In this document: in pieces, positions 8,950-63,705 of the stretch
Layout: every line of letters begins with the position of its first letter
Numbering within the stretch: the stretch's first letter is position 1
Source: an uncultured Solirubrobacterales bacterium
GTDB taxonomy: Bacteria > Actinomycetota > Thermoleophilia > Solirubrobacterales > 70-9
Direction: 5' to 3'
NCBI GenBank assembly: GCA_963812335.1
Contig: CAWEUU010000007.1
Coordinates: 19,682-83,681 of the forward strand
DNA length: 64,000 bases
Notes under the pieces: generated by a model
Seen by the model: only the letters and a program-made list of their open reading frames with translations
What the model was told of the DNA's origin: nothing
Databases searched by the model: none
Translations under genes and position numbers: made by a program

Positions 8950-8996
8950 TTCCGCTGTTCCTTTGCCGTGCTATTTGGGGTTAAGGAACAGCGGAA
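8950..8996. repeat. hairpin repeat family 2, copy A (TTCCGCTGTTCCTT ... AAGGAACAGCGGAA)
   Basis: 14-bp perfect arms (8950-8963 and 8983-8996). Same arm sequence as the hairpin at 44177-44223. Confidence 0.7.
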
Positions 8997-9014
8997 CGCG
9001 CGAGGGGAGGTAGG

Positions 9015-34721: not shown

Positions 34722-35975
34722 TCAGGAGGCTTCGCCGGGAAGCAGCGCCGCCGTGGTCTGCTCGAGCACGCGGCGCCAGGTCGAGGCCTGCCCGCCCTCC
34801 TCCTCGGAGGCGCGCTCGACCGCGCGGCGCACGCGGCGCTCGGAGATCTCCAACCCGTGGCGCTCGGCGATCTCCTTGAAGCGGTCGTAGTCCTGGGCGA
34901 GCGCTGCGGTGACCGACTCGAAGCCGTGGCGGGCGATCTGCAGCCGCCGTGAGTAGTCCATGATCGGCGTGCCGAACATCAGCTCGTCGTTGGGCTCGGG
35001 CTCGATCAGGACGATGTCGACGCCCGGGTATTTCTCCTGCCACATCTCGACCGCCTGGTGGAGCCGGGCGTGGGCGATCAGGCGGAAGGTCTGGTTGGCG
35101 ATCGCCGGCAGGCCCATGTCGGAGACCCGCTTCACCCGCGTGCCGAAGACGGTCGGGATCGTCTGCTCGAAGTCGTTGACGTAGGGGACGAGGGGGTTGA
35201 CGACGAGGATGAACTCCGCCCCCTTCTCGACCGCGATGTCGACGTTGGTGGTCGAGCGGATGCCGCCGTCGATCAGCTGGCGCCCCTTCAGGTCGACCGG
35301 CTTGTAGACGACCGGCAGCGCGGTCGAGCACTGGATCGCTTTCGAGATCGGCACGTCGTCCCAGCCCGGCTCGCCGAAGACGAGGCGCTCGCAGGTGTCG
35401 AGGTCGGTCGCGGTCAGGTAGAGCTCGTGGTCGAGCAGACGGAAGTCGTCGATGCGGCCGTTGTCGCGCAGCGATTCCTCGACGTAGTCGGCGAGGCCGG
35501 CGTTCGAGTAGAGCCCGGTCGGCAGCGCCTCGGCCAGGCCGACGCCGATGTCGATCGCCGAAAAATCCCCCATCTGCACCAACCGCCGCGCCAGCTCGGC
35601 CGTGCGTAGCGGCAGCAATGCGGCTTTCTGCAGGAAACCGAGGTAGTTGAACTTGAGCACCTTGCCCAGGTCGAGGTCCTCGAACTCGGAGGGCTCGCGC
35701 TCATTTATCACCTGCATCATCTCGTCGGGCGTGACGCCGTTTGCCAGCATCGAGGCGACGAAGGAGCCGGCGCTGGTGCCCACGTAGACGTCGAAGTTGT
35801 TGACCGTGCTGTTCACGGCCAGCAGGTCGAGTGCGCGCAGGGCACCGATCTCATAGACCCCGCCGGTAAAACCGCCGCCCCCGAGCACCAGGGCGGTCTT
35901 CGACGGTCGCTTGCGGCCTTTGCCGCGCTTGCGCCGAGTCGGGGTCTCGATGTCGACGACCTTGCCCATAAACAC
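34722..35975 (-). CDS. patatin-like phospholipase
   Basis: 417 aa with a LVLGGGGFTGG oxyanion motif and a GTSAGS nucleophile elbow. Confidence 0.85.
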   Translation of the reverse strand: MFMGKVVDIETPTRRKRGKGRKRPSKTALVLGGGGFTGGVYEIGALRALDLLAVNSTVNNFDVYVGTSAGSFVASMLANGVTPDEMMQVINEREPSEFEDLDLGKVLKFNYLGFLQKAALLPLRTAELARRLVQMGDFSAIDIGVGLAEALPTGLYSNAGLADYVEESLRDNGRIDDFRLLDHELYLTATDLDTCERLVFGEPGWDDVPISKAIQCSTALPVVYKPVDLKGRQLIDGGIRSTTNVDIAVEKGAEFILVVNPLVPYVNDFEQTIPTVFGTRVKRVSDMGLPAIANQTFRLIAHARLHQAVEMWQEKYPGVDIVLIEPEPNDELMFGTPIMDYSRRLQIARHGFESVTAALAQDYDRFKEIAERHGLEISERRVRRAVERASEEEGGQASTWRRVLEQTTAALLPGEAS

Positions 35976-35999
35976 GGATTATCCCAGAGGCGTCGGTTG

Positions 36000-36085
36000 G
36001 GCAGGTGTGAGGACCCTCTCGCCCGAACTCGCGGGCTTCGCCCGCTCTGAGTATCCGCCCGTTCGAGAGGGTCCTCACACCTGCC
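36000..36085 (+). repeat. structured repeat family 1, copy 1 (22-bp stem around a conserved 42-nt core)
   Basis: GGCAGGTGTGAGGACCCTCTCG (36000-36021) pairs perfectly with 36064-36085. The core at 36022-36063 is 41/42 identical to the reverse complement of 40994-41035. Confidence 0.7.
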
Positions 36086-36124
36086 TACCCGCTACCTTCA
36101 GCTGCCCTTGTGTTGCAGCTTGCG

Positions 36125-37351
36125 ATGAGACGAACACCGATCCTCTTCTTCCTGCTTCTGCTCCTGCTGCCGGCGACGGCCAGGGCGGGGGCTTGCGATG
36201 AGATGAAGAGTCGGTTGGTGCGTGGGGGCGGGGCGGCCAGCGGGTTGTTCGTGATCGATGCGAAGAGCGGGAGAAGGGTTTGCGGGCGAGCGGCCAAGAA
36301 GCGGCGCCCGCTGGCCTCGAACACGAAGCTGTTCACCACGGCGACCGCGCTGGCGCGATTCGGTGCGCGCTACCGGATCCCGACCAGGCTGCTCTCCGAG
36401 GGCACGGTCGACCGGCGCGGCGTCCTGCGCGGCAACCTCTACCTGCGCGGGGCGGGCGACCCGACGCTCGGCAGCCCGGCCTTCCAGCGCCGCTTCACCG
36501 GCGGCTTCGGCACCAACCTGTTCGGGCTCAAGGCGCAACTGCGCGGCGCCGGCGTGCGCGCGGTGAAGGGGCGCCTGTACGCCGACGACACCGTTTTCGA
36601 CCGCCTGCGCGGCGTCGCCGACTCGGGCTACGCCACCAGCCCCTACATCGGCCCCTTATCAGGGCTCGCCTTCAACCTCGGCTACGGCAACTCGCACGGC
36701 AGCTACTTCGCCTCCGACCCGGCCACGCTCGCGGCCTCGAAGCTTGCCGTGGCGCTGCGGCGGGCGGGAATCTCGATCCCCGGCGGCGTCGCCCGCCGCC
36801 CCACCCCGGCTGCGGCCGAGCCGGTCGCGACGGTGCGCTCGCCGACGATGTCGCAGCTGGTCGAGGCGACCAACCTTCCCTCCAACAACTTCTTCGCCGA
36901 GACGCTGGTCAAGCTGCTCGGCGCCCGCTTCGGCGCCGCCGGCACGACCGCCGCCGGGACCGGCGTGGTCGAGCGCTTCGCCCGCAGCCGCGGTGCGGCG
37001 ATCCACGCGCTGGACGGCTCCGGCCTGACCCGCGGCAACCGCGCCTCGCCGGCCCAGGTCGTGCGCCTGCTGCAGGGAATGCGCTCGACCGCGGTCGGCG
37101 ACCAGTTCATCCAGGACCTCGCCCTGACCGGGGTCGAGGGCACCGTCGACGGCCGCACCCGCGGCACCGCCGCCTACCGCCGCTGCCGCACCAAGACCGG
37201 CACCCTCACCGGCGTCAGTGCCCTCTCCGGCTACTGCTTCAACCGCAGCGGCAGGGTCATGGTCTTCTCGATCCTGATGTCGAGCGTGAGCAACCTTTAC
37301 CGCGCACATGCTGAGCAGGACAAGATCGCCGGTCTGATCGCTTCCTACTGA
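36125..37351 (+). CDS. dacB: D-alanyl-D-alanine carboxypeptidase/endopeptidase (PBP4, S13 family)
   Basis: Signal peptide, a LASNTKLFT SxxK motif and a PBP4-like body. ATG at 36125 within the track ORF starting at 36110. Confidence 0.8.
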   Translation: MRRTPILFFLLLLLLPATARAGACDEMKSRLVRGGGAASGLFVIDAKSGRRVCGRAAKKRRPLASNTKLFTTATALARFGARYRIPTRLLSEGTVDRRGVLRGNLYLRGAGDPTLGSPAFQRRFTGGFGTNLFGLKAQLRGAGVRAVKGRLYADDTVFDRLRGVADSGYATSPYIGPLSGLAFNLGYGNSHGSYFASDPATLAASKLAVALRRAGISIPGGVARRPTPAAAEPVATVRSPTMSQLVEATNLPSNNFFAETLVKLLGARFGAAGTTAAGTGVVERFARSRGAAIHALDGSGLTRGNRASPAQVVRLLQGMRSTAVGDQFIQDLALTGVEGTVDGRTRGTAAYRRCRTKTGTLTGVSALSGYCFNRSGRVMVFSILMSSVSNLYRAHAEQDKIAGLIASY

Positions 37352-37367: not shown

Positions 37368-40969
<3,602 letters not shown>

Positions 40970-41059
40970 AGGGCGAGGACGGGCACCCTCCCGAACGGGC
41001 GGATACTCAGAGCGGGCGAAGCCCGCGAGTCCGGGCGGGAGGGTGCCCGTCCTCGCCCT
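40970..41059 (-). repeat. structured repeat family 1, copy 2 (inverted orientation)
   Basis: 24-bp perfect stem (40970-40993 and 41036-41059) around the same 42-nt core. Fills the whole gap between the truA and rplQ stop codons. Confidence 0.7.
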
Positions 41060-41060
41060 C

Positions 41061-41414
41061 CTACACCAACTCGAGAAAGACCATCTCCGTAGAGTCCGAA
41101 CGTCGCGGCCCGAGCTTGACGATCCGCGTGTACCCACCGGGGCGCTCGCTATAGCGAGGCGCCACCTCGTCGAACAGCTTGTGGACGACGAACTTGTCGT
41201 TGTGCAGGGTCGAGAGCGCCTGCCGGCGGGCGTGCAGGTCGCCCCGCTTGGCAAGCGTGATCAGCTGCTCGACCTCGGGCTTGACCGCCTTCGCCTTGGC
41301 CTGGCTCGTTTCGATCCGCTCATGCTCGATCAGCTGCTTGGAGAGGTTGGAGAGGAGCGACTCCCGATGCGAGGCGCTGCGGCTCAGCTTGTTGCGTTTC
41401 TTGCGGTGGCGCAT
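41061..41414 (-). CDS. rplQ: 50S ribosomal protein L17
   Basis: MRHRKKRNKLSRSASHR... 117 aa. Confidence 0.95.
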   Translation of the reverse strand: MRHRKKRNKLSRSASHRESLLSNLSKQLIEHERIETSQAKAKAVKPEVEQLITLAKRGDLHARRQALSTLHNDKFVVHKLFDEVAPRYSERPGGYTRIVKLGPRRSDSTEMVFLELV

Positions 41415-43989: not shown

Positions 43990-44176
43990 CGCTCCGGGGT
44001 TTGTCTCGACTACAGGACTCCCGTCCGCCCCATGAATCGGGCAGGCGGGCACGAACAAAACGGCCCTCAGGGCCGACGGAGAAAGATAGCAGGGGGGCGC
44101 TTCTGAGGCACCCTGCCTGAAGCCGGGTAATTGTGGCCTCGGGGGAACACACCGGCCTCTCACCCACGCTCGCGTG

Positions 44177-44223
44177 TTCCGCTGTTCCTTTGCCCTGTTA
44201 TTTCCGGCAAAGGAACAGCGGAA
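44177..44223. repeat. hairpin repeat family 2, copy B
   Basis: TTCCGCTGTTCCTTTGCC (44177-44194) pairs perfectly with GGCAAAGGAACAGCGGAA (44206-44223), with an 11-nt loop. Confidence 0.7.
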
Positions 44224-44232
44224 GGAGCGGGG

Positions 44233-45748: not shown

Positions 45749-45815
45749 GGACGCAGGGAGGGAGGTGAGGGGAGCGCACTTTTTTGTGCGTGACCCGATC
45801 CGACCGACTGAGGAC
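45749..45815 (-). repeat. intergenic repeat family 3, copy 1 (sense with secY-adk)
   Basis: The reverse complement aligns with 62765-62829 (about 55 of 61 non-loop positions identical). Contains the GTGCGCTCCCCTCACCTCCCTCCCTGCGTCC pyrimidine tract. Confidence 0.65.
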
Positions 45816-51558: not shown

Positions 51559-52146
51559 CTACTTCGCCTTCTCCAGAATCTCGACCAGGCGCCAGCGCTT
51601 GGTCTTCGACAGCGGACGGGTCTCGACCAAGCGCACGGTGTCGCCCTCGCCCGCCTCATTGCGCTCGTCGTGCGCGTGCAGCGTTCGCGAGCGGCGGATC
51701 ACCTTCTCGTAGGTGGGGTGGCGGCGGACGATGTCAACGCGGACGGTGATCGATTTCTGCCCCTTGTCGGAGACGACGATCCCCTGCCGCACCTTGGCCG
51801 CATTGGCGTCCTTCTCCGCAACCGGGGTCCCGGTGCCGGCAGTCTTCTTGGCCTTCTTGCCGGCCCGCTCTTTACGCCGTTCCCCCCCACGCCGCTTGCG
51901 CTCGGCGAGACCGAGCAGCCTTCCGCTCCTCAGGAGTCTGCTGCGCCTTGGCCTCATGCGGCCGGCGCGAACGCTCGAGCCTGCGCTTCTCCTTCCAAGG
52001 AAGGTCATCCGCAGGATCGGGCTCACTCTGCTCAGCCTTCGGCTCCTCGGGCGCCGGGGCATCCGCCTCTTCGGCCGGAGCCTCGCACTTTCTACTTTCA
52101 GCGCAGGCCTCAGACTCCTCTGACGCGGGTGGCGAGGAGGGGGCAT
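51559..52146 (-). CDS. rpsQ: 30S ribosomal protein S17 (core certain, 5' end unresolved)
   Basis: C-terminal ~85 aa is canonical S17 ([19 protein letters not shown]...[21 protein letters not shown]). The upstream part of the track ORF is Arg-rich and looks out of frame; see the findings. Confidence 0.75.
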
Positions 52147-52327
52147 CCGGCGAGGCGGCGGCGTCCGTTCCTCGCCCCTCAGCTCAGCGTCCCCCCGCAG
52201 GCCCTCTGGCGAGGAACCCAGCCCCTCGCCGGATGCCCCCTCCTCGACAGGACCCGCGTCCTGAGGCGCCTCGTCCTTAGGAGCGTCCTGCTCGTCGTCT
52301 CGTCTTTTTTAGTCTCGTCCTCAGCCA

Positions 52328-62764: not shown

Positions 62765-62829
62765 GTCCTCGGTCGGGTGAATCGGGTCACGCACGGTAGT
62801 GCGCTCCCCTCATCCCCCTCCCTGCGTCC
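62765..62829 (+). repeat. intergenic repeat family 3, copy 2 (sense with rpsG), inside a 15-bp inverted-repeat frame
   Basis: Aligns with the reverse complement of 45749-45815. Enclosed by GTAGACGCCCTGGGG (62736-62750) and CCCCAGGGCGTCTAC (62843-62857). Confidence 0.65.
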
Positions 62830-62869
62830 TTGCCAGCCACGCCCCCAGGGCGTCTACTAGGGTCAGAAT

Positions 62870-63414: not shown

Positions 63415-63705
63415 ATGGAGGGATTCCTGCCGATCTTCTTCTTGCTCGTCGTCCTCAAGATCCCCGTGCTCGGCGCGCTCTGGCTGATCTGGTGGGCTGG
63501 CAAGGCCCCGGACACCGAGGGCTCCCAGGGCGACTCAAACGGCGGCACCAACGGCCGCCGCCCGTTCCCACCCCGCCCTCGCGGCCCTCAGCACGACCCG
63601 GACGGGGGTTTCGCGAGGAGAGGGCGGGGTGTCCCTCCCGGGCAGCGGCGTCCCCTTTTTCGCCCCAGGAGGGACACCCCGTCCTCTCCCCTCAACCAGC
63701 CCTAG
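63415..63705 (+). CDS. small membrane protein (weak; 3' part doubtful)
   Basis: ATG at 63415. MEGFLPIFFLLVVLKIPVLGALWLIWWA forms a TM helix. The C-terminal half is R/P/G-rich and overlaps a long hairpin. Confidence 0.35.
   Translation: MEGFLPIFFLLVVLKIPVLGALWLIWWAGKAPDTEGSQGDSNGGTNGRRPFPPRPRGPQHDPDGGFARRGRGVPPGQRRPLFRPRRDTPSSPLNQP
63617..63689. terminator. long hairpin between convergent genes (possible bidirectional terminator)
   Basis: 22-bp stem (GGAGAGG-G-CGGGGTGTCCCTCC / GGAGGGACACCCCG-T-CCTCTCC, one G-T pair) with a 29-nt loop. Ends 3 nt before the stop of the minus-strand monooxygenase gene. Confidence 0.4.

Follow-up and report, generated by a model that had tools for sequence, protein, structure and literature searches.

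What kind of sequence keeps its middle and its base-pairing while the letters of its arms turn over? This question is raised by two places in the window, i.e., the whole 64,000-nt stretch of DNA analysed here, at which an almost identical 42-nt core is enclosed by a long perfect stem. The initial annotation took the pattern to mean that pairing is being selected or regenerated, and named as candidates a structured RNA, a DNA cruciform or recombination site, or a miniature element that inserts into or creates palindromes.

Two inverted copies of one hairpin element

Copy 1 is built around an outer stem, P1, in which the 22-nt first arm (GGCAGGTGTGAGGACCCTCTCG; positions 36000-36021) is the perfect complement of the 22-nt second arm (36064-36085). 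The 42-nt core between them (36022-36063) was identified by an exact 42-mer match and by a covariance-model match, the latter scoring 67.1 bits on the minus strand vs 26.8 bits on the plus strand; the minus strand of copy 1 is what we call strand B. Read on that strand, the core is AAC-G-GGCGGATACTCA-GA-[GCGGGC GAA GCCCGC]-GAGTT-C-GGG, in which an asymmetric stretch that is invariant across the family (GGCGGATACTCA on the minus strand, TGAGTATCCGCC on the plus; 36048-36059) lies beside a short apical hairpin, P3, of the form termed "1b" below (GCGGGC-TTC-GCCCGC; 36031-36045). In copy 2, strand B is the plus strand (68.6 bits); its two 24-nt P1 arms (AGGGCGAGGACGGGCACCCTCCCG at 40970-40993, and 41036-41059) enclose the core at 40994-41035, with the invariant stretch at 40998-41009 and P3 at 41012-41026.

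The coordinates, the inverted orientation and the perfect 22- and 24-bp stems all agree with the initial annotation, as do its finer points: (i) the cores are identical at 41 of 42 positions, the sole difference being A vs G, (ii) both contain the GCGGGC-TTC-GCCCGC mini-hairpin, (iii) one pair differs among the inner 9 bp of the stems, and the difference is compensated (CTCTCG/CGAGAG vs CTCCCG/CGGGAG), and (iv) the outer 13-15 bp bear no relation to each other between copies, each being perfectly paired. A repeat search of the window returned a single inverted match between copies 1 and 2, 60 nt long at 95% identity, which extends from the core through the adjoining 9 bp of each stem. Within the window, the 42-mer has two occurrences and no more, against 0 expected by chance (100 shuffles), and a scan with our covariance model, R1, found the same two copies only. 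Folding z-scores for both range from -9 to -11.6 as RNA and from -9 to -10 as DNA.

Copy 1 lies between divergent genes for a patatin-family protein (34722-35975, minus strand), the start of which is ~25-30 nt away, and a Peptidase_S13 protein (a dacB-like D-Ala-D-Ala carboxypeptidase; 36110-37351, plus strand). Both are open reading frames (ORFs) in the window, identified by Pfam calls in syntenic loci (Patatin in L001, L003 and L004; Peptidase_S13 in syntenic loci likewise). The copy is flanked by apparent -10 boxes for patatin (GGATAAT, minus strand) and dacB (TACCTT) within 35970-36124, and is situated approximately where the -35 regions of these divergent promoters would be. Copy 2 takes up 90 of the 91 nt between the stop codons of the convergent genes truA (40967-40969) and rplQ (41061-41063), its first arm starting immediately 3' of the former and its second ending 1 nt short of the latter. 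The truA ORF (40238-40969, plus strand) has homologues named tRNA pseudouridine(38-40) synthase, by which the lineage of the window is placed among uncultured Solirubrobacterales; rplQ (ribosomal protein L17; 41061-41414, minus strand) is an ORF matched by Pfam Ribosomal_L17 in syntenic loci. In two syntenic loci, L001 and L004, related hairpins occupy the truA|rplQ gap.

A dispersed and vertically inherited family

The constant part of the element was learned from syntenic loci as TCGAAC-N-GGCGGATACTCA on strand B, and an 18-base pattern was used to scan genomes; as this exact pattern lies inside the centre, the apparent invariance of the centre in the genome sample is inflated. The search for relatives of the 42-mer that the initial annotation had proposed thus uncovered a large family, for which stem covariation and context could be tabulated. 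At least 119 loci were found, and among the matches listed ~114 carry the full structure, these coming from ~87 metagenome-assembled genome (MAG) assemblies labelled Solirubrobacterales, Thermoleophilia or similar, while the 5 listed matches from unrelated taxa are without stems. A further 47 loci came from scanning metagenomes for the subtype seen in the window. When 154 analysed copies were clustered by their flanks, they fell into 44 orthologous sites, the largest being common to 20, 13 and 12 genomes. Family 1, as we call it, is thereby shown to number 150 copies or more, spread over no fewer than 44 orthologous sites, and to be vertically inherited. Every real copy has stems; neither of the outcomes that the initial annotation had named as refuting its view, i.e., two copies explained by a local duplication or further copies devoid of stems, was thus seen.

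Density was estimated from the loci examined, in which the R1 model found ~8 extra, non-ascertained copies per 0.78 Mb, and from long contigs, which hold 2-3 copies per 64-134 kb; both point to some tens of copies per ~2.5-Mb genome. The plasmid collection gave no family-1 match by blastn, and the viral contigs gave none with one pattern and 8 chance matches, all stemless, with another. A full-text search for the invariant 12-mer and for literature on repetitive extragenic palindromes (REPs) in Solirubrobacterales returned nothing relevant. As far as the literature and the sequence libraries searched show, this family of soil Solirubrobacterales has not been described before. Copies 1 and 2 are best taken as old paralogues within a dispersed family, all structured copies of which, among the matches listed, come from Solirubrobacterales (Actinomycetota).

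An invariant centre within covarying stems

The element is ~90-100 bp long (~95 bp). From the outside in, strand B runs through P1 (median 23 bp, with a G-rich 5' arm), which closes in CTCG/CGAG; two A/G mismatches (AA opposite GG), followed by a C-G pair and a pair that we designate N-N'; the invariant unpaired stretch GGCGGATACTCA; and the variable apical hairpin P3. The 3' side then continues as UUGUC-N'-GGG and the second arm, P1'. The usual apex of P3 is a loop-less, AT-rich perfect palindrome, CTAATTAG.

The GGCGGATACTCA columns are invariant in a 109-sequence alignment (A1), a sample ascertained with that same stretch; they are also conserved in four EgtB orthologues that came from an independent protein search. 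Around this centre, pairing is kept while the paired bases change: 98.1% of cells in the 109 sequences are in standard pairs and 697 carry compensated changes; double-sided changes occur in 23 of 33 pairs, a level that none of 500 shuffles and no slid register approaches. The N-N' pair is GC in 104 copies, CG in 33 and UA in 13, and is unpaired in none; the closing pairs covary too (CCCG/CGGG, CCAG/CTGG, CCTG/CAGG). The earlier view that pairing is selected or regenerated is thus strongly supported, the arms diverging yet remaining paired. P1 and P3 are site-specific, in that orthologous copies are more alike than paralogues. The arms of all copies, and of a second family described below, nevertheless conform to one consensus (GGGG...GTGCCYCTCG) with one polarity, which indicates that the arms belong to the element.

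A sub-variant was also seen in which the first A/G mismatch beside P1 is replaced by a G-C pair (CTCG-GAC...GGC-CGAG), at L100:1152-1234, L056:5325-5407 and 2649-2733, and L070:799-882; some of these copies have GGAC in place of GTCC on the 3' side.

Copies in frame inside intact genes

Three of the orthologous sites fall in intact genes. The element is read there in frame, with conserved protein encoded on both sides, and in three different frames or strands; this is the behaviour of Rickettsia palindromic elements (RPEs). The first is a PMT_2-like membrane protein, in which the element is read as ...PLERADTQxAGLIRPAxVRARG..., with the ORF open and the codon phase equal on both sides in 18 of 20 genomes; in a protein-based, unbiased sample with independent gene calls, at least 104 of 120 orthologues contain the element peptide. 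In the second, another membrane protein, the element is read one frame over (PSNGRILK...), and its apex is CCAATTGG or CCAACTGG, which avoid the stop codons of CTAATTAG. The third is EgtB (DinB_2 plus FGE-sulfatase, beside egtD), in which the opposite strand is read (HLSPGQAPGQLARRFEYPPVRE) in the inter-domain linker, with Pfam domains flanking the element on both sides. Genes called by JGI, NCBI and ENA run through the in-frame elements.

Four EgtB genes that were found without the DNA pattern vary synonymously at 3 of 20 conserved-residue codons in the centre vs 12 of 22 in the flank, and all 3 of the varying centre codons fall in P3. These frozen synonymous sites, together with the use of three frames or strands, place the constraint on the nucleotides and not on any one peptide. 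Strong as it is, the constraint on the centre has exceptions: ~10% of copies in the unbiased protein set carry a changed "invariant" peptide.

In P0311, an orthologue of the site-0 protein, the element peptide is partially duplicated internally (..VGARGAPAASRRRVRARGAPASP..), which suggests that a palindrome arm can also expand locally.

In-frame palindromes of the Rickettsia type are thus extended to free-living, GC-rich soil Actinomycetota, with three clear examples that include the ergothioneine enzyme EgtB. For the annotation of these abundant uncultured soil bacteria, it is worth bearing in mind that the element adds ~25-32 residues to proteins and fills intergenic gaps.

DNA palindrome or structured RNA

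Could the element be primarily an RNA, either a 3'-end hairpin that terminates or protects an mRNA or a cis-regulatory RNA with a factor-binding loop? Most intergenic copies begin a few nucleotides from a stop codon, the stems are very stable and covariation is strong, all of which would suit such a role. The types of pair formed do not. In an alignment-based count over the full P1 and P3, there were 3399 Watson-Crick pairs (97%), 34 wobbles on strand B, 18 wobbles on strand A and 57 transversion mismatches; wobbles (1.5%) are thus no commoner than transversion mismatches (1.6%), and are unrelated to which strand is transcribed. In the inner 16 bp of P1 plus P3, however, wobbles lean ~3:1 towards strand B (29 vs 10 on strand A), and one G.U-compatible position (columns 22-67), adjoining the covarying N-N' pair, is conserved. 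We regard these two features as residual evidence of some RNA-level role on strand B, and on their account keep that role as a possibility.

Gene context, obtained with a trimmed ORF caller and a per-site summary, shows no rule of orientation. Sites with clear context comprise 9 convergent, 8 (-,-), 7 (+,+) and 2 divergent arrangements; of the co-directional sites, 7 have the conserved asymmetric loop on the sense strand and 8 on the antisense, and the edge of the element falls 0 +/- 5 nt from a stop codon on either side and in every orientation class. With orientation approximately even, and wobbles neither enriched nor tracking the transcribed strand, the data do not fit a generic structured cis-acting RNA. 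An intrinsic (rho-independent) terminator was rejected: the hairpin is there, but a T-run (at least 4 T within 12 nt, on either strand) follows the element in 0 of 152 copies. A weak test of orientation against local GC skew gave negative values at 24 of 37 sites (Wilcoxon p = 0.02, binomial p = 0.10).

Further points against an RNA are that copy 1 lies between divergent promoters, that the three coding copies involve both strands, and that the usual apex is the loop-less CTAATTAG; AT-rich perfect palindromes of this kind favour cruciform nucleation and are without obvious value in an RNA loop. The Rfam search that the initial annotation had called for yielded no relevant family: at gathering score, the whole window contains one tRNA and nothing else, and at E values up to 10 the locus gives spurious microRNA-precursor matches only, far below threshold.

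The evidence thus favours a DNA palindrome over a strand-specific RNA, and a primarily RNA element is left as a minor possibility, albeit the foremost among the rivals. Of the candidates named at the outset, the structured RNA is disfavoured by the lack of a wobble preference, orientation rule, U-tract or Rfam match and by the three coding frames or strands, while a DNA cruciform or recombination site and a miniature element both fit. Strong covariation alone does not indicate a structured RNA; it is the tests of wobble, orientation and reading frame that separate the cases.

Turnover of the arms, losses, and probable exchange of the apical hairpin

Between orthologous copies, the arms (bp 5-16 from the core) differ by p-distances of 0.19-0.46, vs 0.16-0.34 at codon position 3 of the neighbouring genes; the arms therefore evolve at an approximately near-neutral rate or faster, with pairing kept. 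Paired change at this rate is hard to reach via deleterious single-arm intermediates, whereas hairpin-templated correction, an established mutational mechanism, would produce it.

Copies are also lost. An EgtB allele without the element (L124, compared with L125) differs by a 75-nt in-frame deletion that leaves outer-arm remnants, and 22-residue deletions are present in P0263 and P0271. The empty EgtB alleles are nested among filled ones, which marks them as deletions and makes them silent on the mechanism of insertion; at the L125/L124 boundary, the only clean filled/empty pair and phylogenetically a deletion, repeats are <= 1 nt. The loci compared yielded no recent insertion whose empty site was clean, and mobility is a putative property, read from the dispersed distribution.

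P3 occurs in two types, the short 1b of the window and the long 1a of most genomes, with 1b also present in L089, L022 and the 47 metagenome loci. The short type was found at 15 or more sites, of which 9 of 15 hold 1a in other genomes with recognisably orthologous arms. One such case is the truA|rplQ site, with 1b in the window and L146, 1a in L016, and CGAGGACGGG common to all three; L022 carries both P3 types on one contig. Parallel insertion at nine identical sites is implausible, leaving non-reciprocal exchange, bounded by the invariant centre, as the simplest account; the difference in P3 at nine orthologous sites between lineages thus implies that exchange between copies has probably taken place. 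Paralogues within a genome are also slightly more alike in P3 than paralogues from different genomes (0.724 vs 0.676, p = 0.03). Such lineage-wide exchange, the in-frame copies and the persistence of copies at orthologous sites all go beyond what the initial annotation had foreseen.

Different P3 types at the same sites could also be read as pointing to a small mobile core, i.e., a centre of ~60 nt that inserts at the apex of existing palindromic terminators, the outer stems being host DNA. The site-specific outer arms and shared centres agree with this, as does L003, in which a family-2 core stands between similar arms. The patatin|dacB gap, however, is filled in L004 and empty in L001 and L003, where both arms are absent along with the core. 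A P1-type hairpin bare of its core was seen at no orthologous site, copies in coding sequence have full arms, and the arm consensus and polarity are common to all copies and to family 2. We consider this explanation unlikely, and the suggestion in the initial annotation that the element inserts into existing palindromes is not supported, given the empty alleles and the common consensus. The spacer at an empty patatin|dacB site is ~70 nt shorter than in filled genomes.

Still less likely is an ordinary miniature inverted-repeat transposable element (MITE), descended from an insertion sequence by deletion and mobilised by the latter's transposase via terminal inverted repeats. Like a MITE, family 1 consists of small palindromes scattered at tens of copies per genome, but its termini are its most variable part and its centre the most conserved, its sites are stable across species, and the plasmid and viral collections hold no copies. 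The sole readable boundary, itself that of a deletion, shows repeats of <= 1 nt, and no transposase gene was seen beside copies in ~1.4 Mb of loci. That copies 1 and 2 reflect a recent local duplication or a chance resemblance, to which their spacing of only 4.9 kb might point, is next to impossible, as both sites are filled in other genomes with synteny conserved, more than 150 further copies exist elsewhere, and no match is expected by chance.

A probable DNA hairpin with a putative partner protein

We therefore favour, as the probable explanation, a REP/RPE-like palindromic DNA repeat family, read as a DNA hairpin or cruciform, in which P3 has spread by exchange. The element would act as a DNA structure and not as a strand-specific RNA; any 3'-end hairpin that it forms on mRNAs would possibly be a secondary effect. 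Hairpin-templated correction (quasi-palindrome template switching), selection favouring extrusion, or the two together would regenerate the complementarity of its arms. As for the invariant bulge, it may be where a putative trans-acting, structure-specific DNA protein recognises or cleaves the element, a protein to which the family would owe its past mobilisation or its present maintenance. Gene conversion, i.e., non-reciprocal exchange, would have spread the short P3 through the window's lineage, and would thus account for the near-identical cores, nearly shared inner stem and unrelated outer stem of copies 1 and 2.

A bolder version, which we think improbable, is that family 1 represents a new DNA signal carried on hairpins. 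Its 12-nt bulge, on a hairpin either extruded or single-stranded, would be read by a structure-specific protein that copy-pastes the apical hairpin between dispersed copies, with the arms continually re-templating each other. If true, this would amount to a miniature form of "cassette homing" inside palindromes, in a self-maintaining system; the host would either tolerate palindromes even in its proteins or use them for marking the chromosome or transcript ends. The invariant bulge offers a handle for finding the protein that recognises the element.

Within tiles of <= 8 kb around matches, two copies bracket genes for a ferritin-like protein, for TruA and for a small HNH protein, none of them a transposase. 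The HNH gene was discounted as evidence for a partner, being a conserved neighbour at a single site only. This gene, for an endonuclease of ~123 aa downstream of gyrA, adjoins a family-1 element in eight genomes (loci L094:6745-7465, where two inverted copies flank it, L135, L139, L140, L154, L160 and L166). In three genomes, two elements exactly fill both intergenic gaps of the ferritin-like gene (L100:1152-1934, L056:5325-6122 and L070:186-882).

Family 1 provides an unusually clean natural data set on the evolution of DNA palindromes, with a frozen centre, fast-evolving paired arms and an apex that has probably been swapped in concert at nine or more loci.

A second family and other sequences in the window

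The window has, at 52127-52249 and 63617-63690, two copies of a family with the same architecture and a different centre (family 2), a further copy being found at L003:10805-10945. Its G-rich/C-rich arms pair perfectly, the conserved stretch, GC(A/G)GCGGCGTCC, is asymmetric, and an inner covarying hairpin (GTTYYTCGCC/GGCGARRAAC) is followed by CCAGC. In L003, the truA|rplQ gap holds family 2 where other genomes have family 1. The shared architecture and the occupation of this gap suggest that both families belong to a broader superfamily.

Near the first of these family-2 copies, the rpsQ (S17) frame (51559-52146, minus strand) is open for ~300 nt upstream of the conserved S17 sequence; this K/R-rich extension reaches the family-2 element, and the rpmC-rpsQ spacer is unusually long (~450 nt). 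Two further sequence pairs were observed in the window. Positions 8950-9005 (plus strand) and 44165-44225 (minus strand) have in common a 16-17-bp hairpin, CCGCTGTTCCTTTGCC...GGCAAAGGAACAGCGG, followed by AC(A/G)CGCGAG, which could be a common operator or leader. Positions 45749-45810 (plus strand) and 62770-62835 (minus strand) have in common a leader-like sequence of ~60-75 nt, GGACGCAGGGAGGG.G.TGAGGGGAGCGCACT...GTGCGTGACCCGAT, with 94% identity over 32 nt, near ribosomal and transcription gene clusters; Rfam, searched at gathering score, contains nothing that matches it.

Relationship to known palindromic elements

Palindromic repeat elements are a known kind, and the family-1 feature is real. 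In behaviour, family 1 is closest to RPEs, with which it has in common palindromes in frame in proteins. RPEs are hairpin repeats of ~100-150 bp, found both in intergenic regions and in frame in unrelated proteins, to which they add a tolerated peptide (PMC10969869). RPEs are old and largely immobile, and co-evolve with host genes. The likeness is one of behaviour, compared by description, between GC-rich Actinomycetota and AT-rich Rickettsia. RPE families are defined by their overall sequence and one conserved peptide, whereas family 1 uses the same nucleotides in three frames or strands, and conserves only its centre while its arms turn over near-neutrally. To our knowledge, exchange of an apical hairpin between copies has not been described for RPEs.

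REP/REPIN sequences are dispersed palindromes that lie mostly just after genes, persist vertically and evolve in concert within a lineage; their presumed active form is a DNA hairpin to which a single-strand-specific HUH enzyme, the RAYT transposase, is directed. Family 1 resembles them as a set of vertically persistent DNA hairpins after genes. REPs themselves are 20-40 nt long and extragenic, occur in hundreds, have a conserved 5' GT[AG]G and a stem that is their conserved part, and are defined by a flanked RAYT gene. Membership among REPs was rejected, the family-1 element being 90-100 nt vs 20-40 nt, with the GT[AG]G tetranucleotide not conserved.

Integron attC sites conserve their structure while their stem sequence varies, and asymmetric unpaired bases set the functional strand of the folded single-stranded DNA; they are found at gene 3' ends, are homogeneous within species in chromosomal arrays next to intI, and have conserved R''/R' boxes (RYYYAAC / GTTRRRY) at the stem base. 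Family 1 is similar in that its structure is conserved beyond its stem sequence. An attC identity was rejected, as there is no RYYYAAC...GTTRRRY pair at the stem base, copies are dispersed singly across 44 sites and the conserved part is internal. Retrons, CRISPR, attC, Xer/dif and tRNA-like elements were also set aside together, the sequence containing no reverse-transcriptase gene, array, core boxes or matching motif.

Quasi-palindrome template switching makes compensated changes in one step and so keeps imperfect palindromes perfect in DNA. It is a mechanism and not an element family, and would erase the asymmetric bulge unless the bulge were under selection.

Correia, ERIC and SPRITE elements are small non-coding hairpin repeats near gene ends that can affect transcripts, with conserved terminal inverted repeats and target-site duplications (PMC10969869). 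In family 1, by comparison, the termini are variable and no duplication was seen at the one readable boundary, that of a deletion; a MITE defined by terminal inverted repeats was rejected, since the arm divergence given above holds even between orthologues and the conserved part is central. Ultimately, what sets family 1 apart from both RPEs and REP/REPIN is its plan: a conserved asymmetric centre held between hyper-variable arms.
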